Part shown: positions 19,995 through 64,000 of the stretch, in pieces
Position numbering within the stretch: position 1 is the first letter of the stretch
Layout of the letters: the number at the start of each line of letters is the position of its first letter
Assembly (NCBI RefSeq): GCF_964273255.1
Contig: NZ_OZ186835.1
Location: 1,555,413-1,619,412, forward strand
From: Streptomyces sp. enrichment culture
Lineage (GTDB): Bacteria; Actinomycetota; Actinomycetes; Streptomycetales; Streptomycetaceae
Length of the DNA stretch: 64,000 bases
Direction: 5' to 3'
Notes under the pieces: generated by a model
Seen by the model: the letters and a program-made list of their open reading frames with translations, nothing else
Told to the model about the DNA's origin: nothing
Database searches by the model: none
Translations under genes and position numbers: made by a program

Positions 19995-20214
19995 CGGGCG
20001 CCGGTGACGCCCTGGAACCCCGGGCAGGGGCGGGATGGCTCGCGCCGCCGCCCCGGGGCGCCCGGCACTGCCCCGGGCGCCCGGGGCCGCCCTGGGTGCC
20101 GGCGGCTGCTCCGGGTGCCGGCCGCTGCTGCGGGTGTCGGCGGCTGCTCCGGGCGCCGGCGGCTCGCCGGGGCGTGGTGCGGCGGGACGGGGCGCGTGGT
20201 GGGGCGGGCGGGGA

Positions 20215-20289
20215 CCTGTGGCGCGGTGTGGCGGGACGGGGCCTGTGGCGCGGTGTGGCGGGACGGGGCCTGTGGCGCGGTGCGGCGGA
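20215..20289. repeat. 27-bp tandem repeat CCTGTGGCGCGGTGTGGCGGGACGGGG (about 2.7 copies)
   Basis: Head-to-tail copies at 20215 and 20242, partial copy at 20269; intergenic. Confidence 0.85.
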
Positions 20290-23727: not shown

Positions 23728-23794
23728 GGCGCCCGACCGTAACAGCGCACGGTCGCCCGCTCCCTCGATTTTCTCCCGCCCACCGCCGGGTCCG

Positions 23795-23875
23795 ATCCCA
23801 TGCCGGACCGGGCCGGGTCCAATCCCATGCCGGGCCGGGCCGGGCCCAATCCCATGCCGGGCCGGGCCGGGCCCA
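23795..23875. repeat. 27-bp tandem repeat ATCCCATGCCGGGCCGGGCCGGGCCCA (3 copies)
   Basis: Copies at 23795, 23822 and 23849, followed by short GGCCCGGTG repeats near 23960-24020. Confidence 0.85.
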
Positions 23876-49425: not shown

Positions 49426-49704
49426 GTGCCGGTCTGCCTCACCCGGCAGATCCTTGTCCTGGCCGACCGCGCCTACCAGGGTGCCGGCGCCACCTTCCGC
49501 ACCGCCTCCTGCCACCACAGCCAACAGCCCGAGCATTACCAGCAGTGCAACCGCGACCACGCACGACTGAGAGCCCCCGGCGAACGCCCCTTCGCCCGAC
49601 TCAAGTCCTGGCACCTCATGCGCAGAGCACGCTGTTCGAGCCGCCGTATAAGCCGCACCGTCCAAACCATTTACGTACTACTGAGCTGCACCTATTCAGG
49701 ATGA
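49426..49704 (+). mobile_element. IS5-family transposase C-terminal remnant
   Basis: LVLADRAYQGAG, NRDHARLRAPGERPFARLKSW resemble DDE_Tnp_4-type transposases; N-terminus missing. Confidence 0.8.
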
Positions 49705-49776
49705 GAAACTTGGCGTCCCTCGGCGGCGTGGCGGTGTTCCCTGGGCCGGACGGCGCCGGTTGCCCGTCCTGGGCCT

Positions 49777-50097
49777 TCAACCTTCCAGCAGATCGCTGAC
49801 ATACTCGCGGAGCTGAGGAGGAAGGTTGCCGAGGACGATCTCACGCAGAGGGGAAAGGTGGTCACGGTCGACGTGACCGGTGGATGCGAGTTCGATGAGG
49901 GCGTGCAACTCGGCTTCCCGGGCGGAGTTCTCCCTTTCGAAGGCAGCGGTTGCCGCCAGCAGTGTCGCCAGCGCCGACGCCTGGGCAGACGTCAATGAAC
50001 CCACGTGGTCGGACACTTCGTCGGCCGCGCGTTCTCGTGCCTGTGCATCGACTTCCAGGATCATTCGCGCCATGCTGATGAAGTCGTGAGACTTCAA
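49777..50097 (-). CDS. Candidate immunity protein for Ntox30-like toxin (copy 1)
   Basis: Intact ORF (TTG 50097 or ATG 50073) directly after a toxin-tip remnant; near-identical to 60039-60359. Confidence 0.7.
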   Translation of the reverse strand: MKSHDFISMARMILEVDAQARERAADEVSDHVGSLTSAQASALATLLAATAAFERENSAREAELHALIELASTGHVDRDHLSPLREIVLGNLPPQLREYVSDLLEG

Positions 50098-50114
50098 TGT
50101 GCAACACCCGTTCG

Positions 50115-50292
50115 TCACTGGTACGGAAGTGGAAACTGAGTCGCCAGGAGATGTGTGTGGCATGGGCCACATCCGGATCGTAGTGCGGGCTGTTCGGGTT
50201 GTGGACCTGCTGGTGTACAAGTTCCGCACCGCATCCTGGTATTTCCCGCCGATCGATATGCGGTAGATATCTCCGTTTGCCGCGTTGGGAGC
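50115..50292 (-). pseudogene. C-terminal remnant of Ntox30-like toxin (copy 1), frameshifted
   Basis: NAANGDIYRISIGGKYQD...HATHI(S)W; ancestral end QFPLPYQ* (TGA 50115-50117) still readable. Confidence 0.7.
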
Positions 50293-50360
50293 CGGCGGCA
50301 CCGCCACGTGGGTCGAGCGCGGGCCCCGCGCCGGTTCCCGGGGCGGGGCCTCGGAAGCGG

Positions 50361-50404
50361 GCTCCTCTCCAGCGATCCGCGTCCTCATTCGCCTGGAGAG
50401 GAGC
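50361..50404. terminator. Hairpin GCTCCTCTCCAG/CTGGAGAGGAGC
   Basis: 12-bp stem just downstream of the 50410 gene. Confidence 0.55.
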
Positions 50405-51654: not shown

Positions 51655-54600
51655 TCATCTGATTTGTACCGCCGGAGGCTGGAAGCGGCCGTCCTTGGCG
51701 GGAATCCTGCCGTTCACGATGTCCTCGTGCGTGACCGGGGCGCCGGGGTCAGTGGGTTTTCCGCCGAGCGCCGTGGCCCCGGAGTCACCCTTGATGCCTG
51801 AGGGACCGTACGCCGTGATGGCCTGGCCCTGGGTCTGACCCGGGCCGTCGATCACCACGATGTCGTTGCCCTGCCGGAATGTGAACGTCCCGGCCGTGCC
51901 CGTCGAGTGGTACACGGCGTCCGGGTTCTTGAGGATTTCGACGACCCGTTCGTCGCTGAAGTCATGCCGGGTGTCTCCGTGGTAGTCGTGGCGTTTCCTG
52001 AACCCGCCGTCCTGTGCTCTCTCCACGTGTCGTCCACCACCTTGTTGATCCGCTTCTGGGCCCGTTCCTCTTTCGTGTACTTGGGCATGAGGCCCAGCGG
52101 GTCGCACCCGCTGTACGGGTTGTCCACGTACGCGACTGGGTTCGGGGCGGGAGCCAGGCCCAGCGGGTCGGGGGAGGTGTAGCGGCCGGTCTCGGGGTCG
52201 TAGTGGCGGAAGTAGTTGTAGTGGAGGCCGGTCTCGGGGTCGTAGTACTGGCCGGGGAAGCGGAGCGGGGTGTAGGCGCTGCTGTCACGGGCCCAGGCCG
52301 TGGTGCCCCAGAGCGTGCTCCGGGTGCGCCAGGCGATGTCGCCCGTCTCGTCGATGAGCTCGGTCGGCGTGCCGATCAGGTCGGTGGCGATGGCGAAGAA
52401 CCGCCGGTCGATCTCCTCCTGGCGGTCGTCGGCCGTGAGGATGCGCTCGGTCTGGGCGAGGGGCACGTCGGCGCGATGTTCCCAGGTGAGCGCGACCGTG
52501 TGCGGTACGTCCGGCTGGTGGCTGGTCTGTTCGCACAGGGTGAGGCCGTCCCAGGTGAACCGGGTCTCCTCGGCCACACTGGTGCCGTCGGCCGCCAGGC
52601 GCTGTTTCGCGATGCGGCGGCCCAGCGGGTCGTAGCGGTAGGTCCAGCGGGTGCCGTCGGGGGTGGTGACGGAGGTGAGGCGGTTCTCCGTGTCCCACGT
52701 GTAGCGCCATGTGTCGGGCTTGCGGGAGAGGCGGGTCTTCTGCCGCAGGGTGACCCGGCCGAGGGCGTCGTACTCGAACCGGACGTCTCCGGCACGGGTG
52801 ATACGGGTGCCGCTGTAGGTCCGCTCCCCGGTCGCCTCACCGCCCGGATGCCGGTCCGGCCAGGTCGCCGAGGTCTGGTTGCCGGCGTCGTCGTAGGCGT
52901 ACCGCTCCGTCCAGCCCCGGGCGTGGACGGCGGTGACCCGGCCCACCCGGTCGAGGTCGAAGGAGCGGCTGCCCGACAGACGGTCCGTGACGGAGGTGGG
53001 ATGTCCGTCGGCGCGGTAGGAGTAGGCACGGTGGTTGACGACGCGAGCTCCGGCGGTGATGTGCTGCGCGGCGAGCCGTCCGGCCTCGTCCCAGGCCGAG
53101 GTCATGGTGATCGTGTCGCCGAAGACGCGGGTGAGTTCCCTGCCGGCGGCGTCATGGGTGAATGCGATGCGGTGCCCGCCGCTGGTCAGGCGGTGGGGCT
53201 GTCCGTCGGCGCCGTAGGTGTAGGAAGTGACGTGACCGGTGGGGGTGGTGCGGCGCGTGCGGCGGCCCAGGGCGTCGTAGGAGTAGGAGACGGGGCGGCC
53301 GTCCACCAGTTCGGTCTTGACCTTCCCCCGGCGGTCGTACTGGTAGCGGAGTTCGCTGTCCGGACCGGCCGCCTCCAGCAGGCGGCCCGCCCTGTCGTAG
53401 GCGTAGGTCGTCACCCGGCCGTCGATGTCCTTGCGGACCACCTGGCCGAGCTGGTCACGCTCGAAGGAGATGGTCCCGCCGAGCGCGTCGGTGCGGGCGG
53501 CGAGCCGGCCCGCGGCGTCCACCCGGTAGGTGAGTACGCGGTCGTCGAAGTCGGTCTCGGAGACGATGTCGCCGGCGGCGTTGTACTCGTAGGTCCAGGT
53601 CAATCCCTGCGGGTTGATGACGCGGGTGAGACGCAGTTCGGCATCGTGCTCGAACGCGTAGCGCGTGCCGTCGGGTCGGCTGCGACCGACCAGGAGGTCG
53701 AAGTGGGTGTACTCGAAGCGGGAGACACCACCGGACACATCCGTGTGGGTGAGCAGGTTGCCCTCGCCGTCGTAGGTCCACGATTCCGTGGCTCCATCGG
53801 GGCCGATGCGTCGGGCGAGTTGCCCGTCGGCGTGCCATTCCAGGCGGGTCACGCCGCCCACCGGGTCCGTGATGCGGACCGGCCTGCCGAGGGCGTCCCG
53901 TCGCGTGCGCGTGCCGGCGCCGCCGGGACCGGTCACCTCCACGGGCAGCCCCGCCGCGTCGCACACCACGCGCGTCACGGCTCCGAGTGCGTCCGTGACC
54001 GATGTGAGGCGACCGGCGTGGTCGTAGGTGTAGCGGGTGGTGGCACCGGCCTGGTCGGTGACCGCCGTGCGGTTTCCCCGCTCGTCGAACTCATGGACCA
54101 TACGGGCGCCGTCCGGCCCGACGACCTCCACCGGCAGACCGAACCGGCCGCGAACGGTCCGCAGTTCGCTTCCGTCGGGGCGGGTGGCGGAGACGACCCG
54201 GCCGTCCTCGTCGTAGAAGAACGCGGTGGTGTGGCCCAGCGGGTCGGTGCGGGTGAGGACGTTGCCGCGGGTGTCGTAGGTGAAACGGGTGGTGTGGCCG
54301 AGCGGGTCGGTGGTGGCGATCACCCGGCAGCGGTGGTCGATCAGGTGGCGGGTCGTGTGGCCGGCGGCGGTGGTGAGGGTGGTGGTGCGGTGGCCGGTGT
54401 CCGGGTCGGGTTCGGTGTAGGCCAGGGTGATCTGGACGTGGCCCGCTTCGCCGCCCTCCGCCACGACACGGTCGCGGTCGTCGTAGACGTAGTCGTAGCG
54501 GCTGCCGTTGGAGTCGATCCAGGCGGTGACGCGGCGGCGGTCGTCGTAGACGAACGTGGTGGTCGCGCCGGAAGGTTTGGTGACGGTGGTGAGGTTGCCG

Positions 54601-56426
54601 TCCTCGTCGTAGCCGTAGGACATCAGCGGCAGATCGGCACCGTCCTCGCCCCCGCCGGCCAGGTGCAGTGCGGTGATCAGGCCGTCGGCGGAGGCGAGGT
54701 CGATCCGGCGGCCGGCCGAGTGGACCAGGGCCGTGGGCAGGCCGTCTCCGGCGCGGTCGACGGTGACGGTATGGCCGTTGCGTTCGGTGAAGCAGGCCAG
54801 CCAGGCGGTTCCGTCGCCACCGGGTTCGGCGTCGGGCGGGGCGGTGAAGCGACGGGTCAGGCCGGTGTCGGGGTCGGTGAGCGTGTAGTCGCCGTCCGCG
54901 TCCCGGGCCAGCAGGGTGCGGGCGGGGCCGGACTCCGGGCGGGTGGCGGTGCCGGGGGCGGGGTGCGGATAGGTGATCAGCAGCCCGTCGGCGGTGACGT
55001 GGACGATGCCGACCGGGTCGACCTCCAGGCGCTCGTCGACGGTGGAGGTCCAGGACGGCCCCAGGAAACGGCCGGCCGTGCAGCCCGACTCGGTGCGGCG
55101 GGTGAACACCAGCGGCAGGATGCCGGGGATCTCCACGTCCGTCTGCGGCAGGAACATACGGCCCGAGGCGAGGTCGACCGGGTCGGTGCCGTCGGTCGTG
55201 CGGTCGCCGTCCGGCCGGTTGTGGGTGCCGTCGGGCGCGTCGTCGACCAGCCTGCGCACCCGGGCCGCGTCGGCCGCGTCGGCGGCGACGCGCACCCCCT
55301 TGACGGCGGCGCCACCCCCGCCCGTGGCCACGGTCAGCGCCACGTCCGGCAGCAGACGGCCGAAACCCTCGTAGGGGTCCTTCGTGAAGTCGCTGACCAT
55401 CTGCTTGCCGGTGCCGACCGGGTCGTTGGCGGCCAGCACCAGCCCCGCGGCCAGGCTGTTGAGGCTGGTGGCGTATTCGGCGGGGTGGGTCAGGTTGTAC
55501 GGGTCGAGGGGGTTGATGCCCCGCACGAAGTTGAGCAGCCCGGCGGTGCCCTTGATGACGCCGCCGCCGACATGGTCCCCCATGATCTGGAACTCCTGGA
55601 GGCCGTCGCCGAGTTGCTCCGTGTACGACGGCTTCTCCGGCGCCATGTCCCGGGCCGCGCGCACCGCTGTGCGGGCCGTCTCGGCCGCGGTGTTGCGCTG
55701 CTTGCGGGCCTCGGCCAGGATCTCCTGCGCCTCCTTCATCAGCTTCTTGCCCGGGTCGTCGAACGTCGGAGCCGGGCAGGGCGGAAGCGTGGAGGGGTCC
55801 CGCTTGTCGGCGGGCAGGGCGTTGTAGCGGTCGACGGCCTTGTTGTACGTGTCGACCTTTTTGCGGTGGGCGTCGGCGGCGTCCTCGGACGCCTTCACCC
55901 CGTCCTTCCACTTCTCGATCGCCGTCTGCGCCTGCCCCTGCGCCCAGGTCACGGTGGAGGCGAACGACTCCAGCGCGGCGGCGGCCTTCTCGCAGGCGTC
56001 GGCGCCCTCGAACCACTTCGGCGGCTGGGTGCTCACCGCCTTGCGCAGCGCCTCGGCCGTCTCCCCCTTCAGACGGGAGGGGTCCAGCCCCTTCAGGCCA
56101 CCGCCCGCGTCGTCGAACGCCTTCTGGAAGCCGCGCAGTTTCTCCGCGGTGGAGCGGATCTTGTCCGGGCTTCCGTGGACCAGTTTCGTCTTGTCCTCGG
56201 TGTCCCCGAGGTCCATCTCGTCGACCTCGGCGCCCATCCGGTTCGCGACCGAACGGGACTGCTCGCGCACCCAGTCCGCGCCGGACTCCCAGCCGACGTC
56301 GTCCAGCCGGTCCGCGGTCCAGTTGCCCGCGCCCTCGACCCTGTCACCGAGCCACTCGACACCCTCCTCGACCGCCTCCTCAACCGAGTCAGGGGTGATG
56401 TCCTTGATGAAGTCGCCGATGCCCAC
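51655..56426 (-). pseudogene. T7SS-type Rhs/YD-repeat polymorphic toxin with 1-nt frameshift near 52025
   Basis: Helical T7SS-type N-terminus, DPVDLASG, YD repeats, PLRFPGQYYDPETGLHYNYFRHYDPETGRYTSPDPLG core, DPLGL cleavage motif. The tip continues in the frame ending at 51655; 4772 nt + 1 = 1591 codons. Confidence 0.88.
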
Positions 56427-56428
56427 GC

Positions 56429-57094
56429 TCAGTTGCCCCCGCCGTCACCCGGGCCGCCCTGCTGCTGCGCCTGCTGGGCGCGTTCCTCGGGCGACGGACC
56501 GAACGTCTCGTCCAACGCCCGGTTCCACTCGTTGTCGTCGATGCCCAGCCGCTCGTTGAGCCACTCCGCCTGCTGTCCGCCCCGCCCCTCCGTCAGCAGC
56601 GAACGGCCGGTGTCCTTCCAGGTCTGCTCGATCTCCTCACCGGCCCGCTCGAACGACTCCCGGCTCCAGTCCGGGTCGAAGGCGTCCGGCGTGAACACCT
56701 CACCCCAGCCCTGCTGGGCGATCTCCTCCTCGGAGGCGTGCGGGTTGCCGCCCATCAGGGCGTTGACCCCCACCTTCAGCGAGCCGGCCACGTACTGGTC
56801 GTGCTCCCACAAGGTGCCCGCCGCGAGGCCGAGCCGGTTCGCGATCTGGCTGGCGTCGTTGACCAGGGCGCGCACACCCCACTCCCAGCGTTCGCAGAAG
56901 TCCTCGAAGTCCACGGACAGGCCGTGGTGCCCGGCCTCCATCCCCGTCATCGACAGCCCGGAAAAGCCCTTGCCCATGATCGAGCCGGTGGCACCGCCCA
57001 ACTCCCCCAGCCCGTCGATGGTCGCGCCCACGCCCTTGGTGAACTTCGCCACCGAGGCGGCATCGAGATTCAGATCCACATCGTCAGCGGCCAC
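56429..57094 (-). CDS. WXG100-like partner of the Rhs protein (221 aa)
   Basis: VAADDVDLNL...FEDFCERWEWGVRALV (WxxG-like) helical hairpin; between SseB and Rhs. Confidence 0.7.
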   Translation of the reverse strand: MAADDVDLNLDAASVAKFTKGVGATIDGLGELGGATGSIMGKGFSGLSMTGMEAGHHGLSVDFEDFCERWEWGVRALVNDASQIANRLGLAAGTLWEHDQYVAGSLKVGVNALMGGNPHASEEEIAQQGWGEVFTPDAFDPDWSRESFERAGEEIEQTWKDTGRSLLTEGRGGQQAEWLNERLGIDDNEWNRALDETFGPSPEERAQQAQQQGGPGDGGGN

Positions 57095-57542
57095 GCCCGT
57101 TCCCCTCCCCGTCCGAGCCGTCGGCCCCGGCCTCGACGGCGGCCCCGGCGGCCCCGGCGTCGACGGCGGCCCCGTCCGGGACGATGCCCGCGACCGGCGG
57201 GAAGAACATCGACCCGTCCTCGGTCGCGATGTCCACCGCCAGCCCGGCGGGCTCCCCCAGCCCCGGCACGATCTCGTCCACGATCCGGGCCCCCAGCAGC
57301 GCCGCATAATCCAACGGCCGTTCCGCCATCCCGCGTTGCTCCGCGAACCGGGCCAGCGCCGTCTCGTCCGTGAAGGCACACACCCACCGCACCCCGCCCG
57401 AGTGCGCGCTCCACAGCCGCCCGTCCACCGACGGCACCAGCAGTACCGACCGGCGCATCTCCCCCACCAGCGCACGAGGATCACCAAGCCCCGCCCTCTG
57501 CTCGGCTATTCGCTCGGCCAACACCGTCCTGGGCTGCTCCAC
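57084..57542 (-). CDS. SseB-family protein
   Basis: ALVGEMRRSVLLVP...GVRWVCAFTDETALARF...GLAVDIA...MFFPP; typical first gene of Streptomyces Rhs operons. Confidence 0.75.
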   Translation of the reverse strand: MEQPRTVLAERIAEQRAGLGDPRALVGEMRRSVLLVPSVDGRLWSAHSGGVRWVCAFTDETALARFAEQRGMAERPLDYAALLGARIVDEIVPGLGEPAGLAVDIATEDGSMFFPPVAGIVPDGAAVDAGAAGAAVEAGADGSDGEGNGRGR

Positions 57543-58337
57543 GACCCCTCCCTCGTCCTGGTGTCACGGGTGACTGATGGCACCGTAGATCACGACGCGC
57601 GCGAAGAGGGCTGTGGTTCTCGTGAAACTCGACCGGGCCCCCATCAGGCTCCGTTGATCTGGACGCCGAGGTTCACGGGATCATCTGAACCGCACCGACG
57701 GCGACGCGCCCCTGCGACAGGAACGGCGTCAATCGAGCGTCAGGTTCCCGCGGCCGGCCCCGTCGGTATCGCCTCCCCCAGATCCCCAGAGACGCATCGG
57801 ACTTCCGACACATACGGAACCGCAGGTCATCGGCCCCTTCGGAAGAACGGCGGGGCGCTTCTCCAACGAGAGCATGGATGCCCTCCATCCCGACGACACG
57901 ACCGTCCTGCCGACCGCATCAAACGACTGATCCCCTACACCACGTCAAGGGACATGACCTCTCCGAAGCGCGCCGGCCGAACCGGCTGCACAGCGGTACC
58001 CCACTGGGTTGCTTCCCGCGTCGTGGCGCGGAGGGTCCAGCGTTGCGCGTTCCGGCGCACGGCCCCAGACCGATCTCCGTAGAGGCGCCAGTCCACGAGA
58101 CGCCCCGCCGAGGCGAGTTGAACCCTCGGGACGGCGGATACGCCATCCCCGACCTGCGGATTCCGACGTGCGACGGAAGGTCGAACACTTCCTCGCTCCC
58201 TCGTCGACGTCGACACATGGGCGGCACGTGAAACCGCGTCATCCTTCCGCCGCGGCATCGACAAGGACGGGCCGGTTACCGACCTGACCAGCCGGGCGTT
58301 CAGCGTCGGCTCCCGGTTGCCGCCGGAGTCCAGATCT

Positions 58338-58425
58338 GGGACCGGCCAGTGTGCCGGTGGAAGAACCTGCTGAAGTGGGTGGGCTGGGGAAGTCGAGCCG
58401 GTCGGCGATACGGACGACGAGTTCG
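58338..58425 (-). pseudogene. AraC-family HTH C-terminal remnant (frameshifted)
   Basis: VRIADRLDFPS/THFSRFFHRHTGRS across a 1-nt shift matches the AraC second HTH signature. Confidence 0.6.
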
Positions 58426-58508
58426 GCCGCAGCGTCTCGGCCACCCTCTTCACCGCCCGCCCCGCCCCTGACAGCCGCCCATGTCTGCGCACCACCCCAC
58501 CTGAAAGT

Positions 58509-58865
58509 CCGTCAGAACGAGCGTCATTCCAGCGCCAGGACTTCCAGGACGCCCCGTCCGCAGACCAGGCAACCATCCGCCACCGCACCGGAAAAGCCCA
58601 GGCCGGAGCCCATAGGGCCACGCCATCACGCCTCGACCTGTTTCCATCCGGGAAACACGTCGAGCACAACGGGCCGCGCCTGAGAAACCCAGGAAAACCG
58701 CAGGTCAGAACCCCTTTGCGGTAGGCTCCAGAATCGCCACGCACTCCACATGGTGCGTCATCGGAAAGATGTCGGACTGAGCAAGGCACGGAAAAGCCCA
58801 GGTCAGGACCAGTTTCTCGGCTTGCTGCCCCGCGTACGGGCGCCCGGAGCGTCAAACGAGCGTCA
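58509..58865. mobile_element. attP-like element A: GCGTCA arm repeats - rlmD 3' core (58705-58773) - GCGTCA arm repeats
   Basis: Minus-strand core translates DIFPMTHHVECVAILEPTAKGF*; arms CCGTCA-N6-GCGTCA (58509-26) and GCGTCA-N5-GCGTCA (58849-65). Confidence 0.65.
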
Positions 58866-59166
58866 CGGTCCGGGTCATCATGTCGACCGCATCACATGTG
58901 GCCTCATCCCCTGGCACCGGACGTACCGGCTCGGCACCGGTCGGCAGGGCGCGGAGCGGGCGGCGGCGCGACGGTCATCGCGGTCGACAGGAGGCACTCG
59001 CTGCCGACGAGCGGGCTTCGGTTTCCCGAACCCCTGCATCGGGGGCCGACAGGCCCCTTCCTGCCGGCCGGGACCCGTGACAACGGGCCTCGTGGACGGT
59101 CCGTCGGGACCGTATCGTTTCGGCGGGCAGGTCAGGTGTTGCTCCGGTCCGTGCCCGGAAGGCCGT

Positions 59167-59972
59167 CTACGGACGGCTCCCGTCAGTCGTGCAGCGACGG
59201 AACGCCTCCCAGGTCGCGCGCACGGCGGTTCGGAGTCCTGCGTCGTCGAGATCACCGGGTTCCGCGAGGTCGGGGTCGACCGAGTACTGCTCAAGGATCA
59301 TGAACACTTCGTCCAGGAGATCACCGAGCGCGCCTCGGACCCGCTCCCCGTACGTCTGGGAGGCCCGCCGGCCTCCCACCAGCCGTGGGCGAACTCCGGT
59401 GCGCCGCACGTTCCGGCCTCGGTGAACGCCTCCAGTAGTGCCAGTTGTTGTGCCGTGGCGCTGACCGGGTCGACATCGCCGAGCCTGGACCACGCGCGAT
59501 CACCGGGCGGATGGGAGGCAGCCACAGGTGCGAGCGAGGGGTGACGTTCCAGGAGCGCGCGTGCGTAACGGCCGAAGCGTGCGCGTGCCGTGTCCGTGCC
59601 CTCGCTGACGGCCGAGGCCATGAAAGCGGTGGTCCCCGCGATCAGCGCGTAGCCTTCCTCAGGGAAGAGGACGGCTCCCTGCGCGTCGGGCGTGCGCAGC
59701 TGGACGGGTGGGCGCAAGCCCGTCAAGTCCGCGTCTGCGGGAACCCGGGACGGCGCCCCGGGCACGTCGGCGAGACTCGTCGCAAGGAGGTGCGGGGCCC
59801 CCACGGCACGACAGCCGGCCTCGATCCTGCGGGCCAACGCTGCGTCGAGGCGCGCTCCCACGGGCATCGGGGCCACCGTCCTCTCCCGCAGCCACGACGA
59901 CGTGAAGGTGCCGTCCGGACCGAGCACCCCGCTCTGGCTCCCCGATGACTCCCCGCCTTCTGGACCGGTCAC
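59167..59972 (-). pseudogene. Immunity-like gene with C-terminal colicin D immunity-like domain, 1-nt frameshift near 59370
   Basis: EFAHGWWEA/RRASQ..GERVRGALGDLLDEVFMILEQYSVDPDLAEPGDLDDAGLR; 806 nt + 1 = 269 codons. Confidence 0.6.
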
Positions 59973-60038
59973 CGCAAGAACCCGTTGTCGATGAGCGGAG
60001 TTCCGGGACCGGACGGCGCCGGCTGCCGTCCTGAGCCT

Positions 60039-60359
60039 TCATCCTTCCAGCAGATCGCTGACATAGTCGCGGAGCTGTGGAGGAAGGTCGCCGAGGACGA
60101 TCTCACGCAGAGAGGACAGGTGGTCAAGGTCGACATAGCCGGTGGATGCGAGTTCGATGAGGGCGTGCAACTCGGCTTCCCGGGCGGAGTTCTCCTTCTC
60201 CGAGGCAGCAGTTGCCGCCAGCAGTGTCGCCAGAGCCGATGCCTGGGCAGACGTATATGACCCCACGTGGTCGGACACTTCGTCGGCCGCCCGTTCTCGT
60301 GCCCGCGCATCGACTTCCAAAATCATTCGCGCCATGCTGATGAAATCGTGAGACTTCAA
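60039..60359 (-). CDS. Candidate immunity protein for Ntox30-like toxin (copy 2)
   Basis: LKSHDFISMARMILEVDARARERAADEVSDHVG...SDLLEG; now in frame with the upstream toxin remnant. Confidence 0.7.
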   Translation of the reverse strand: MKSHDFISMARMILEVDARARERAADEVSDHVGSYTSAQASALATLLAATAASEKENSAREAELHALIELASTGYVDLDHLSSLREIVLGDLPPQLRDYVSDLLEG

Positions 60360-60376
60360 AATGAAACATCCGTTCG

Positions 60377-60833
60377 CCACTCGTACGGAAGTGGACTGGG
60401 CCGGCCAGGGGATGTGTGTGGCATGGGCCGCATCCGAGTTGCAGTGCGGGCTGTTCGGGTTGTGGACCTGCCGGTGATACAAGTTCCCCGCCTCGTCCTG
60501 GTATCTTCCGCCGATCGATATGCGGTAGATATCTCTGTTTGCCGCGTTGGCGCCCGCGGGAGCAGTTCCGTCCTTGTCGTGCACCCGTAGGCGGACCTTG
60601 TTACCCGTCTCGGGGTCTTCCCATTTGCATTCCACCCCCTTCTGTGCACCGCCATTGGGGTCCGGCTCGAGTGTCCGCATCTCGGCATCGTCGGGAACGA
60701 TGCCGAGCGGGTTGTGACCGCGCACGTCCCAGCCACCCCCCTCAATGCGGGAGGGATAGGGGGACAGGCCTAGCGGGTCGGCCCACAGATGTGGGTTGAC
60801 CACATATGCCGTCGGATTGGGAGCGGCTTCCAA
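60377..60833 (-). pseudogene. Orphan Rhs C-terminal module with Ntox30-like RNase toxin
   Basis: Short core stub APNPTAYVVNPHLWADPLGL, then LRVH (RxH) and HATHIP (THIP) motifs; no upstream Rhs body. Confidence 0.78.
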
Positions 60834-60964
60834 GCCACGCCTACCGGAGACCTGTCGCCGTATAGCTCAAGTCCATAGAGCAGACCTAACGCGCTACTCG
60901 ACGGGCTGAGCCCGAAAAGTCGATTGGCCCGCGCCATCCGGTCCTAGCACGACCACCTCACACT

Positions 60965-61315
60965 CCGTCAGGAACAGCGTCGAACGAGCGTCAAGACATG
61001 CCTTGAACCCGTCCCTGACGGAGTTGAGCAGAGCGTTCTGGACTCACGCTCCCGTTGTGAAACCGCAGGTGAACCACGCGGCGACTACTCCACGCGGTGA
61101 ACTTCGGAAAACAGGTCGAGCACCGTCGAGCACCCCTGAAGAACCCGATAAAACCGCAGGTCAGAGCCCCTTCTGCGCAGGCTCAAGAATTGCCACGCAC
61201 TCCACGTGCGACGTCATCGGAAACATGCCACATGAAGCAAGGCCGGGAGAGAAGCAGGTCAGAGGGTGCTTTTCTCCGGGCGGGCTGTCAGCACCTGAGC
61301 GTCAAACGAGCGTCA
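60965..61315. mobile_element. attP-like element B: arm repeats - rlmD 3' core (61161-61229) - arm repeats
   Basis: Core translates GMFPMTSHVECVAILEPAQKGL*; arms CCGTCA-N6-GCGTCG-N5-GCGTCA (60965-93) and GCGTCA-N5-GCGTCA (61299-315). Confidence 0.65.
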
Positions 61316-61742
61316 CAAACAGAGAGCGACCGACCCGCTCGACGGGCTTCCAAGGCCGACCGGGTGACGGCACGCGATGGCGTCGGGCATCGGCACGCGC
61401 CCAGATCACGGCCGACGGTCAGGCGTCGGTCATCATCTGCGCCTCTCCCCCACGGCTGGCGAAGGTCAGCCAGGGCCTGGGACACCCACTTCAAGAAGTC
61501 TTCTGCGAGCGGGACCGTGTCCTGCGAATGTCCGAAGCGACCATTCGCCCTGCACGACGGCGACAGTGTGTACGACAAGCGCCCGTCGCACGGTCTGCCT
61601 GCGGTCTCATGCAGGCCGCTCCGTTCCCGGCAGGTAGGCGATGACGATCCACCAGGCGACGCGCAGGTGCACGGTCTCTGCGTTCACTGAGGTGGGTCCC
61701 GGATGGCGGGGTCCGGGACCCGGTGGTGCCTCTACCTCTTGT

Positions 61743-62057
61743 TCATCTATTGGTCGGGAGCCCGGCTGCGGATACATGCCGGGTCGAAACCCGGGGCGGT
61801 GTCACGAGGACATGCTTGCCCGATGGGCGACGATCATGGTGGCTCCAGGTGACCCAGCCCCGCTGCGCGGCGACCACGCCTGCGGCGAATCGATTCTGTA
61901 CCTCGAGTATTTCCATGATCCGGGCCACCCGACGGCGCACCGTGCGCACGCTGACCTTCAGATGCCGGGCTATCGGCTCGTCGCACGGGTACGTGGCGAG
62001 TAGGGAAAGCAGCCGAAGATCGTCGGCGGAAAGGGCGCAGTCCTGTTCGGCGGTCAT
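61743..62057 (-). CDS. Stand-alone LuxR-type HTH protein
   Basis: LSADDLRLLSLLA...DEPIARHLKVSVRTVRRRVARIMEILEVQNRFAAGVVAAQRGW. Confidence 0.75.
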   Translation of the reverse strand: MTAEQDCALSADDLRLLSLLATYPCDEPIARHLKVSVRTVRRRVARIMEILEVQNRFAAGVVAAQRGWVTWSHHDRRPSGKHVLVTPPRVSTRHVSAAGLPTNR

Positions 62058-62202
62058 TGATCCCCCGTGATAGCGAGACGGATTCAGCGGGGTGGCGGTT
62101 GCCCACCCTTGGTCGACTGGATAAATCGGTCGCCTACAACGTCAATGTGAGCATAATAGCCCGAATCCGCTTCCTCATAGAAGCTTTTTGGACATCTGAT
62201 CA

Positions 62203-63999
62203 TCACGGTGCCAGTGCGTTGTTCACGATTTCCGACGTCTCGGCCGACAGTCCTTGGGCCTCCCGCAGCGACCCCAGCGTGCGCAGGACCAGCTCCCGCC
62301 TCGCGGGGTCCAGCACCCGCCAGCCGTCGAAGCAGCCGGCCAGCCGCGCCGCCACCTGCGGGTTGAGCGCGTCGACGCGGCGGATCTGCTCGGCGGCGAA
62401 GGCGTAGCCCGAGCCGTCGGCGGCGTGGAAGTGCGCCGGGTTGTCGAAGCAGTACGCGATCACCAGCGCACCCACCCGGTTCGGGTTGGCCTCGGAGTAG
62501 GCGGGGTGGTGGATCAGGCGCCGGACCCGGGCCGGGGCGTCCGGGCGGCGGCTGCGGGCGTGCAGGGAGAACCACTTGTCCAGCACCAGCGGATGATCCC
62601 GCCAGCGCTCCCCGAACTCTGCCAGTGCCTCCTCCCCGTCGGTTCGGTCGGCCAGCGCGGTGAGCGCGGCGAGCCGGTCGGTCATGTTGTCGGCCATCGC
62701 GTACTGCCGGTGCAGCAGCGAGGCGACCTCCGGGTCCTCCAGTTCGGCCAGGTAACCCAGGCAGGTGTTCCGCAGCGCGCGGCGCCCCGCGTCGGCCGCC
62801 GCGAAAACGTACGGGCGGCCGTCGTCCAGGCGCCGGTGACAGGCGAGGAAACGTTCCCGAAGGGTGTGCGCCAACTCCTGCCTGGTGCGGTCGAGTACAG
62901 CGGTCAGCCGGACCGGGTCCACCTCGTCGAGCAGGCCGAACAGCGTGCCGAAGCAGGGCAGTTCCAGCATGAGCGCGGCCAGGGCCGGGTCGGTGCCGTC
63001 CTCCGTGAGGAGTCCGCCGAGGGCCTCGACCAGTGCCTGGGGGAGCGGTGGGTGCGGGGCGTCCGCCGCGCCGTCCGCCCTGGGCGCGTCCCCGGCGCGG
63101 TAGCGCTCCAGGAGCAGGTCGACGAAGAAGCCGTGGAGGGACTCCCAGCGCACGAAGGGGTCGTCGTCGCGGGCGGCCAGCAGCAGACGCTCCTCGGCGG
63201 TAAGGGGCAGCCGGAGCCGTACCGGCGCGGAGAAGCCGCGCAGCAGGGAGGGGACCGGCCGCTCGGGCACATCGGCGAAGGTGAGGGTGGTGACCGGTTC
63301 CCGCAGTTCGCAGACGCGCTCGGTTCCGGTGGGAGCCGTCTCGTCCGCGAGGCGCAGCGGCAGGTGGCGCCCGTCAGGGCCCAGCAGGGCGAGGGTCAGC
63401 GGGATGTGCAGCGGCTGCTTGTAGGGCTGCCTCGGGGTCGGAGGGCAGGACTGGCGGACGGTCAGGGTGCAGGTGCGGGCCTCGGCGTCGTGGTGGGCGG
63501 TGACGTCGAGGACGGGCGTGCCGGCCTGTTCGTACCAGCGCATGAACTGGGTCAGGTCGGTCCCGTTCGCCTCCCCGACGGCCTCGACGAACTGCTCGCA
63601 CGTGGCGGCCTGCCCGTCGTACCGGGTGACGTAGGCGCGCAGGCCGCGTCGGAAGCCCTCCTCCCCGAAGAGCGTGTGGAGCATCCGGATGACCTCGGAG
63701 CCCTTCTTGTACACGGTCCAGGTGTAGAAGTTGCTGATCTCGCGGTACTCGTCCGGGCGTACGGGGTGGGCCTGGGGCCCGGCGTCCTCGGCGAACTGGC
63801 GCTCCCGCAGCGCGCGCACGTCCCGCACGCGCTGCACGCCGGGGCTGCGCCGGTCGCCGGAGAAGCGCTCGTCGCGGTAGACGGCCAGGCCCTCCTTCAG
63901 GGAGAGCTGGAACATGTCGCGGCAGGTGACGCGGTTGCCGGTCCAGTTGTGGAAGTACTCGTGGGCGACGACGGTCTCGACGGCGGCGAAGTCGTCGTC
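62203..63999 (-). CDS. pepN: M1 aminopeptidase N, proteobacterial (E. coli PepN) type; 5' part outside the window
   Basis: HEYFHNWTGNRVTCRD.FQLSLKEG, NFYT.TVY.KG.EVIRM, FMRWYEQAGTP, PSLLRGFSAPV, VLDKWFSL, NPNRV.AL, NPQVAARL. Confidence 0.95.
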   Translation of the reverse strand, partial: DDDFAAVETVVAHEYFHNWTGNRVTCRDMFQLSLKEGLAVYRDERFSGDRRSPGVQRVRDVRALRERQFAEDAGPQAHPVRPDEYREISNFYTWTVYKKGSEVIRMLHTLFGEEGFRRGLRAYVTRYDGQAATCEQFVEAVGEANGTDLTQFMRWYEQAGTPVLDVTAHHDAEARTCTLTVRQSCPPTPRQPYKQPLHIPLTLALLGPDGRHLPLRLADETAPTGTERVCELREPVTTLTFADVPERPVPSLLRGFSAPVRLRLPLTAEERLLLAARDDDPFVRWESLHGFFVDLLLERYRAGDAPRADGAADAPHPPLPQALVEALGGLLTEDGTDPALAALMLELPCFGTLFGLLDEVDPVRLTAVLDRTRQELAHTLRERFLACHRRLDDGRPYVFAAADAGRRALRNTCLGYLAELEDPEVASLLHRQYAMADNMTDRLAALTALADRTDGEEALAEFGERWRDHPLVLDKWFSLHARSRRPDAPARVRRLIHHPAYSEANPNRVGALVIAYCFDNPAHFHAADGSGYAFAAEQIRRVDALNPQVAARLAGCFDGWRVLDPARRELVLRTLGSLREAQGLSAETSEIVNNALAP

Positions 64000-64000
64000 C

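Follow-up and report, generated by a model that had tools for sequence, protein, structure and literature searches.

Two non-coding repeats, modules A and B, in a 64,000-nucleotide stretch of DNA from a Streptomyces sp. enrichment culture (contig NZ_OZ186835.1, positions 1,555,413 to 1,619,412; hereafter the window) are very probably attachment-site modules of a family of genomic islands that target rlmD, left there as internal junctions of a decayed array. The rlmD gene encodes the 23S rRNA U1939 m5U methyltransferase, and each module consists of a core, matching the 3' end of this gene, between two arms with direct-repeat motifs. Modules of the same anatomy occur in other genomes, where they adjoin genes of tyrosine integrases and where occupied and apparently empty sites can be compared. 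An earlier note on this stretch had taken the two sites for attP-type junctions of an rlmD-targeting family, with arms on both sides and no integrase in the window. Our analysis supports this claim, including the arm and core anatomy, with one amendment: the sites are not free attP and are best read as internal P'-core-P junctions of a tandem accretion array.

The modules are direct, co-oriented copies of a unit of about 360 nt, 2456 bp apart from start to start. Both lie on the plus strand, A at 58505..58870 and B at 60950..61317. An nhmmer profile of 385 model positions, built from 8 independent full modules of other genomes, matches them end to end (A, model positions 25-378, E 8.3e-60, in agreement with the alignments; B, positions 14-375, E 2.8e-62) and matches nothing else in a search of the whole window. 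The core of A, delimited by translation and similarity boundaries, occupies 58698..58775 on the minus strand and comprises 20 codons (to 58767), the stop codon (58705-58707), and the CCGCAGGTCAG box; that of B, at 61154..61231 on the minus strand, has the same parts (codons to 61223, stop 61161-61163). Read on the minus strand, 58705-58767 translates to FPMTHHVECVAILEPTAKGF and 61161-61223 to FPMTSHVECVAILEPAQKGL, each followed by a stop, and both are the last 20 codons plus stop of RlmD. With an intact RlmD as tblastn query, only its last 20-24 residues were found in the window, at A and B, and no rlmD body. The cores therefore encode only the RlmD C-terminus, with no methyltransferase gene around them, as had been claimed. 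The intact target gene passes the NCBIfam RlmD equivalog TIGR00479 (203.8 bits vs a cut-off of 183.55), and the intact homologue of Nonomuraea, whose DNA matches the core, ends in ...FPMTHHVECVALVVKE. The CCGCAGGTCAG box belongs to the gene end as well: in Streptomyces the stop codon lies within it, and in Nocardioides it encodes SDLR. Boxes flanking the core, as described in the earlier note, are indeed present, and the one next to the core has to be reassigned to the end of the gene.

The arms carry two kinds of direct-repeat motifs, GAGCGTCA dyads and CAGGTCAG boxes. The GAGCGTCA units stand at 11-bp spacing at the outer ends and the boxes, of the form AAAC(N)GCAGGTCAG, further in; all the arm motifs given here are on the plus strand. 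At the outer end of the left arm, A has CCGTCA-N6-GCGTCA-N5-GCGCCA (58509..58537) and B has CCGTCA-N6-GCGTCG-N5-GCGTCA (60965..60993), which from their sequence are putative arm-type protein-binding sites. The motif of A recurs at the same distance in other genomes, in left arms of families 2 and 3 (see below). The inner left-arm motif of A, a GTCGAGCAC box within GGGAAACACGTCGAGCAC (58659..58667), corresponds to the column block GGAAAACAGGTCGAGC conserved in two module alignments, and B has copies of GTCGAGCAC at 61116-61124 and 61126-61134. Counting from the first C of the CCGCAGGTCAG box, the right arm of A has a box, CCCAGGTCAG, at +101 (58797..58806) and the dyad GCGTCAAACGAGCGTCA at +151 (58849..58865), where the module ends. 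In B, the right-arm box GCAGGTCAG lies at 61254..61262 and the dyad GCGTCAAACGAGCGTCA at 61299..61315. In 24 right arms, only the box, AAAag.gCAGGTCAGag, and the dyad, a near-invariant GAGCGTCAAACGAGCGTCA, are conserved at these two positions, and the spacers are scrambled. Next to the cores, a AAAACCGCAGGTCAG motif occurs at 58694-58708 and 61150-61164 (for AAAACCGCAGGTCAG / AAMNSCAGGTCAG, 2 observed in the window vs 0.02 expected), with weaker copies at 58797-58806, 61254-61262, and 61063-61071. The window has 4 exact matches to GCGTCR-N5-GCGTCA, where 0.14 are expected, and none of 100 shuffles reached this number. The GCGTCA repeats, boxes, and cores reported earlier are all where they had been placed.

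The two modules can be aligned over their full length, with several identical blocks and an identity of ~72% in the central ~220 nt, and so do not stem from a recent local duplication. The left arm of B belongs to family 3, which it shares with three intact rlmD junctions (L030, L031, L055), L111, and L001. The last is a copy on plasmid NBC_01201 (L001 11721-12123), 89% identical to B over 403 nt, the similarity beginning at 60836. The left arm of A is unique among the copies sampled. Judging from these comparisons, A and B appear to stem from different island lineages, and their core variants (H/S codon) differ as the linkage analysis below predicts.

A fifth GCGTCA pair noted at 57726-57742 is an exact dyad, as reported, and turned out to be a solitary, weak left-arm remnant instead of another site. 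The remnant (57726..57846, plus strand; nhmmer model positions 41-139) has the dyad and, 92 nt on from it, AACCGCAGGTCA at 57818-57829, without core or right arm. Its score is 6.6 bits (E 8e-4), reached only when 2 kb are searched, and it is absent from the whole-window search. A third full module at 57726-58060 was considered and rejected, since the profile sees nothing more than the remnant there. The remnant lies directly upstream of the SseB-like gene of an Rhs operon, and plasmid Alt3 has a full module in the matching position, upstream of its SseB gene.

To place the modules in a family, we scanned a genome collection with the pattern CCGCAGGTCAG-N18-38-ACGCACTCNAYRTG and obtained at least 120 stretches, nearly all from Streptomyces. 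The matches listed, to which the counts of copies, pairs, and families given here refer, include about 70 full-length rlmD genes (~450 aa, ending LRAFDLFPMTHHVECVAILEPxxKGx*) and 54 fragments with a frame that closes 7-140 codons upstream. Boundaries were drawn from an all-against-all comparison of 3-kb stretches. The similarity of fragments to genes ends at +60..+79 in ~780 of the 836 fragment/intact pairs; leftward it ends at about -10..0 in most pairs, those of two intact genes included. Many pairs of fragments have an additional common segment that ends at +160..+179, directly past the GAGCGTCAAACGAGCGTCA dyad. As the same boundaries occur in 54 fragments from many species, and as tblastn found no more of the gene in the window, the cores do not belong to a longer, degraded rlmD copy. 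Among the left arms, family 1 (54 members) has dyads at -65/-85, and in families 2 and 3 the dyad stands at about -140 to -200, accompanied by a box near -88 and a GGAAACAGGTCGAGC block; arms of either kind adjoin intact genes as well as fragments. Phage records showed no similarity to module A, and the dyad pattern had 0 matches in IMG/VR.

The intact rlmD genes (L007-L126, a sample biased by the search pattern) are rich in A/T-ending codons in their last 15 codons, which is unusual for Streptomyces (consensus of the ends TTT CCG ATG ACG CAT CAT GTG GAG TGC GTG GCG ATC...). This fits a gene end that element-borne sequence replaces again and again, or one under constraint as a recombination site.

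Occupied and empty sites can be compared directly in three loci. A fragment (L075) and an intact gene (L023) adjoin each other as blocks of the same contig, their cores separated by 7.1 kb, and the interval holds a TetR regulator, an NmrA-like protein, an FAD monooxygenase, a VapBC pair, and IS3 remnants, without an integrase. In L049, the same metallo-beta-lactamase (MBL)-fold gene and left arm as in L075 are joined straight to an intact rlmD. This locus matches L075 and L097 at 93-97% identity as far as about +75, past which the sequences are unrelated; against L023 it is unrelated on the left and ~85-90% identical from about -38 rightwards. In these alignments, L049, L075, and L023 stand in an attB / attR-like / attL-like relation, as an apparently empty site and the two ends of an occupied one.

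The point of exchange may be located by linkage. Over 112 copies, core polymorphisms from +11 to +57, including the H/S codon, track the left-arm family and not the right side, whereas from +66/+70 the association is reversed and is with the right-side type. As linkage switches between +58 and about +70, strand exchange probably takes place within or next to the invariant GTCATCGG; the corresponding region would be 58756..58768 in A (GCGTCATCGGAAA, strand not assigned) and 61212-61224 in B. At codon positions 1/2/3, fragments have minor-allele counts of 43/26/223, and intact genes have 26/19/248. Such third-position-dominated variation is expected in fragments if each copy was, or will be, a working gene end. 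Set against a lambda-type attachment site, the core matches the target attB, the 3' end of a conserved gene; the junctions are fixed, with one exchange region inside the core; and arm motifs are repeated at conserved distances, in A and B both. Cognate int/xis genes next to the site are lacking in the window and present in the family, in six integrase lineages.

Two of the pattern-derived loci, among the matches listed, have tyrosine integrases (L041 and L080). A third (L004, plasmid-labelled record BHT-5-2 p1) has a C-terminal remnant of an L080-type integrase, 76% identical, that ends ~100 nt from the right dyad. In IMG/VR, the L080 integrase had no relatives. A protein search with it returned many from Streptomyces, and six of these were looked up. 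All five full-length relatives at 64-77% identity have a core and a right arm with box and GCGTCA repeats just past the stop codon of the integrase gene, at 41 nt in L142 (77% identity), 330 nt in L135 (73%), 159 nt in L141 (72%), 194 nt in L137 (69%), and 405 nt in L143 (64%). An excisionase-like HTH_17 gene precedes the integrase gene closely in L135, L141, and L137, and none was called in L142 and L143. The sixth, L139 (59%), is without a module and lies inside an actinomycete integrative and conjugative element (AICE) of RepSA/FtsK type. In all, six integrase lineages (64-100% identical) are found with a core and right arm, four of the six with an excisionase-like gene upstream. Hence, the GCGTCA arm repeats do stand next to rlmD-linked integrases, in 6/6 lineages at >=64% identity, as the earlier note would have it. 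The integrase lies 1-3 kb from the module in L080 and L134, the latter a metagenomic relative with core, box, and dyad 3.2 kb from the integrase gene. Another AICE, with GntR regulators and an FtsK/TraB-like protein (L006, a predicted provirus), abuts an intact rlmD, and its P' arm carries GCGTCG-N5-GCGTCA; its far end was not recovered by a contig-specific pattern.

Tandem arrays with small cassettes are found elsewhere as well. Further module copies lie 0.9 and 6.1 kb away in L137 and L143, which are hence also arrays, the first with an RHH-Fic (ribbon-helix-helix antitoxin) cassette, and others are L034 (0.99 kb), L090 (1.7 kb), L123 (4.7 kb), and L002 (7.6 kb, a whole Rhs operon). The smallest cassette that we saw is that of L137 (11310-12550, Streptomyces sp. 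NBC_01218 chromosome), an RHH antitoxin and a Fic/Doc toxin in ~0.6 kb, with a full module on one side and a second core with left arm on the other, adjoining an intact xis-int pair. Rhs genes adjoin modules in L036, L022, L028, and L086, and other adjoining cargo includes Doc and VapBC pairs and sacsin-like ATPases. Defence-type genes lie directly beside modules in three loci: a pPIWI_RE Argonaute-like protein (L104 58-2799), an HsdM-type N6 methylase fusion of 1135 aa (L046 4547-7954), and an SMC/SbcC-like (JetC-like) ATPase of 1401 aa with a 419-aa partner (L106 1654-5859). Clustering of the flanking open reading frames (ORFs) showed no conserved recombinase beside the arms. The only recurrent protein, of ~457 aa (cluster c10), sits right next to left arms of family 1 in 10 loci, oriented either way (L012, L014, L021, L024, L054, L077, and L118 among them; -1620..-220 relative to the core). 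Its C-terminal half is coiled-coil and rich in Arg/Glu, it has no match in Pfam or NCBIfam, and a remnant of it lies between right arm and integrase in L080.

These observations are consistent with the following mechanism. Islands of the family, including AICEs, would integrate into the 3' end of rlmD by tyrosine-integrase site-specific recombination. The element would carry the core of ~80 bp (the last 20 codons, the stop, and the CCGCAGGTCAG box overlapping it), so that the gene is kept intact after insertion. The left arm would be P' and the right arm P, both with conserved direct-repeat motifs, and the outer repeats are putative arm-type sites for the N-terminal domain of the integrase and/or the excisionase. 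Successive integration of islands would give each internal junction the structure P'-core-P, which is the anatomy of attP. We read A and B as such junctions because they have arms on both sides in a window without integrase, excisionase, or rlmD body. Their array would have lost integrase and excisionase, leaving a 2.1-kb cassette between two complete modules. With both proteins supplied in trans, recombination of A with B would excise this cassette as a circle with one module, and the circle could re-insert at rlmD or at another module.

Several points weigh against this account. Arms with the same motifs also adjoin apparently "empty" sites such as L049, where they may be native flank or an old element arm. 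Within ~4 kb of the ~125 sites listed there are just 2 intact integrases and 1 remnant, so most copies must be non-autonomous or dead. The window itself has no integrase, excisionase, or remnant of either. The array is not beside rlmD in the visible DNA, which extends 2.7 kb to the right of B and holds pepN there; a segment mobilized in cis would be expected at the primary site, and neither target gene nor helper is found in the 64 kb. Finally, contigs assembled from public runs over 56500-62500 break at the cores and can neither show nor exclude excision, and the few contig joints have sides of 21-30 nt and are not trusted.

The same public runs tell something of the copy number. Contigs of X1, X4, X5, and X12 carry the A-B cassette almost unchanged and break at both cores (58711-58911 and 61123-61323), with a depth 2-3 times that of the flanks, and a loose contig end at 61177 reads ...AAGCCGCAGGTCAAGCACCCTTCACG. 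From the loose end and the depth, these genomes contain a minimum of one additional core copy, whose left flank differs and which may be the intact rlmD.

The alternative that survives best is that the modules are dead att relics, in which cassettes are now gained and lost only by RecA-dependent recombination between the ~80-bp cores and the arms. The rarity of integrases near the sites speaks for it, as do the frameshifted ORF and truncated Rhs gene of the window cassette and the divergence of A and B (72% identical). This same divergence, with longest exact stretches of ~20 nt, also makes them ill suited to homologous recombination. Across species, the arm motifs hardly vary while the spacers are saturated with changes, which points to continued selection on putative protein-binding sites, and intact int-xis pairs adjoin complete modules in several genomes. 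For the window sites, motif conservation argues for use, and cargo decay and integrase scarcity argue for relics; on balance, we consider the relics account rather unlikely.

Far less probable is a cis-regulatory array, with operators of response regulators or SARPs controlling toxin genes, or a structured non-coding RNA. The 11-bp direct repeats and TCGAGC-like heptamers do resemble OmpR- or SARP-type sites, and the Rhs operons of the window and of plasmid Alt3 have modules upstream of them. Yet the neighbours are genes of every kind in both orientations, and the motifs stand at fixed distances from the rlmD core and beside integrase genes. As for an RNA, there is no Rfam match, and the consensus fold has -4.6 kcal/mol and 0 compensatory pairs in 23 sequences. 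That the modules are pseudogene debris, random leftovers of a duplicated rlmD with chance or unrelated repeats around them, would explain cores that translate to the RlmD C-terminus; it is highly improbable given that only the last 20-24 residues are present, that the truncation point is the same in 54 fragments of many species, that the non-genic flanks are conserved (E ~1e-60 with an independent profile), and that the repeats are far more numerous than by chance. Just as implausible is a non-autonomous element resembling a miniature inverted-repeat transposable element that carries the rlmD fragment by accident: the unit of ~370 bp is discrete, with sharp ends and many copies, but its terminal motifs are direct and on the same strand, not inverted, no target-site duplication was seen (no dedicated search for one was run), no transposase is associated, and the copies are co-oriented with rlmD, bound islands beside the intact gene, and have their exchange point inside the core.

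The cassette between A and B contains an orphan Rhs C-terminal fragment with an Ntox30 toxin and an in-frame immunity ORF (60039..60833, minus strand). The fragment is 5'-truncated and begins at the conserved Rhs core-end motif PNPxxYVxNPxxWxDPLGL; the Ntox30 domain lies at ~60402-60713 (Pfam PF15532, 1.1e-30), and the toxin frame runs into the cognate immunity ORF at ~60039-60335. Toxin and immunity are 72% identical to the toxin end and immunity gene of a full Rhs operon on plasmid Alt3. There, a complete SseB-hypothetical-Rhs-immunity operon, with this toxin family as its tip, is bracketed by two modules. The second cargo ORF (59167..59972, minus strand) is broken by a frameshift near 59370-59490 in the ORF list (ORFs 59298-59972 and 59167-59493) and has no match in Pfam or NCBIfam; contigs of run X12 have one extra base at 59369. 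As the similarity of B to the plasmid copy begins at 60836, three bases from the truncated Rhs start, the toxin cassette was joined to a pre-existing arm by a separate rearrangement.

To the left of A lies an operon of type VII secretion system kind (51852-57542, minus strand), with the SseB-like gene, a hypothetical gene, and a gene for a 1524-aa Rhs protein. The Rhs ORF (51852-56426) has a low-complexity tail, and an overlapping 150-aa ORF in another frame (51655-52107) extends past it, which points to a possible frameshift within the C-terminal toxin domain or shortly before it. Downstream of this gene and of two putative immunity genes, a second orphan (49764-50388) shares 90-91% identity with the A-B cassette over the 3' part of the toxin and the immunity ORF, with the toxin part further truncated and out of frame. 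Just past it, a DDE transposase fragment (49426-49704, …LADRAYQGAGATF…ARLKSWH…) is IS5-like by eye. To the right of B come a weak helix-turn-helix ORF (61743-62057), for which an exact-protein look-up returned no record, and then pepN, 0.9 kb from B. The whole segment at 49-61.4 kb has the look of an island, with a GH11-type xylanase gene on one side and pepN on the other. No Rfam match was found in 56000-64000 at E <= 1, and no tRNA gene in the window. A repeat finder showed two sets of 27-nt tandem repeats at 20168-20283 and 23785-23875 (3-4 copies each, 70-97% identical).

The rlmD modules account for conserved ~370-bp non-coding repeats that annotation pipelines leave blank, and they mark hotspots of toxin and defence cassettes. 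They also show that reusable attachment modules often delimit the toxin/immunity and anti-phage defence cassettes of Streptomyces. With its att architecture and cognate Int/Xis family, the rlmD 3' end would be an integration hotspot of Streptomyces undescribed in the literature searched, where we found no paper on it as an integration site of the genus nor on this att architecture. The system could also yield a new orthogonal tool for site-specific integration in Streptomyces, a genus in which such tools are prized. A bolder idea, which we put forward tentatively and think could well be wrong, is that the modules form a genus-wide platform on which integrase-less cassettes (0.9-7.6 kb) are exchanged in trans. 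If true, complete attP-type modules of ~370 bp would travel with the cassettes, and the minority of islands with Int/Xis would excise these and re-insert them at rlmD or at whichever other module, be it on a linear plasmid or at a secondary place in the chromosome like that of the window. The cargo would comprise Rhs/Ntox toxins with immunity, Doc, VapBC, restriction systems, pPIWI, and SMC-type defence genes. This would amount to integron-like shuffling from lambda-type sites and, for polymorphic-toxin loci, to site-specific swaps of orphan toxins.

Among known systems, the closest are the lambda-type attP of pSAM2, SLP1, and mycobacteriophage L5, which are composite sites of ~350 bp with a core that is the 3' end of a host gene and with arm repeats. 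As in these, the core of the rlmD module restores the gene, arm motifs lie on both sides, and the family has a tyrosine integrase with an N-terminal domain of arm-binding type and an adjacent HTH_17 excisionase. The target differs, as it is the protein-coding rlmD instead of a tRNA gene, the arm motifs (GAGCGTCA, AAACNGCAGGTCAG) are others, and most modules, both window copies included, have no adjacent integrase.

Accretion is a second parallel. Cis-mobilizable elements (CIMEs) are known from Streptococcus thermophilus, and the segment A-B is likewise delimited by two att sites in direct orientation and has no recombination or transfer genes of its own, only the Ntox30 orphan, the immunity ORF, and the broken ORF. 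Accretion arrays, decayed members without integrase, and mobilization in cis are established in Streptomyces and elsewhere, with AICE/DAICE accretion at tRNA-Arg in Streptomyces (PMC9513070), TR1/TR2 at aviX1 in S. scabiei (PMC10711302), PAISt modules at bacA (PMC4057263), and ssrA islands of Dehalococcoides (PMC3146451). The rlmD arrays share with these and with CIMEs the tandem islands at one site, the direct internal att copies, and the decayed, integrase-less members bounded by sites that a helper could use. They differ in target and att sequence and in the very small size that their cassettes may have (0.9-2.5 kb); moreover, the array of the window is away from the target gene, and similar arrays are on linear plasmids. 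We rejected an identity with the TR1/TR2 aviX1 site of S. scabiei, the published border of which, TAGACGTTGAAGCGGAAC, is unrelated.

The streptococcal and clostridial integrative and conjugative elements (ICEs) at rumA use serine integrases, cut inside the gene, have repeats of 2-21 bp, and alter the protein C-terminus (PMC4701971). The precedent of rlmD/rumA 3' ends as ICE targets, invoked by the earlier note, is therefore loose: the landing site is in the same gene family, whereas the elements described here have a tyrosine integrase and a ~80-bp core at the extreme 3' end of rlmD, and they preserve the coding sequence.

Like integron cassettes, those between rlmD modules are small, promoter-poor, integrase-less, tandem, and bounded by sites, with a recombinase supplied from elsewhere. 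In contrast with integrons, they have no IntI-type integrase, no attI, and no folding attC hairpins; the window has no integrase, and the modules, ~370-bp double-stranded sites of lambda type, have no conserved secondary structure. The A-B cassette also resembles the orphan toxin-immunity modules of Rhs and contact-dependent inhibition (CDI) loci, with a 5'-truncated Rhs toxin and its immunity gene beside a full Rhs operon. Orphan arrays of this kind are thought to exchange by homologous recombination. Unlike in the usual Rhs/CDI arrays, the orphan of the window is bracketed by integrase attachment modules, which offers a testable site-specific route of exchange alongside the homologous one. 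Seen next to these systems, the feature is real and well defined, yet it is an ordinary kind of mobile-DNA junction.

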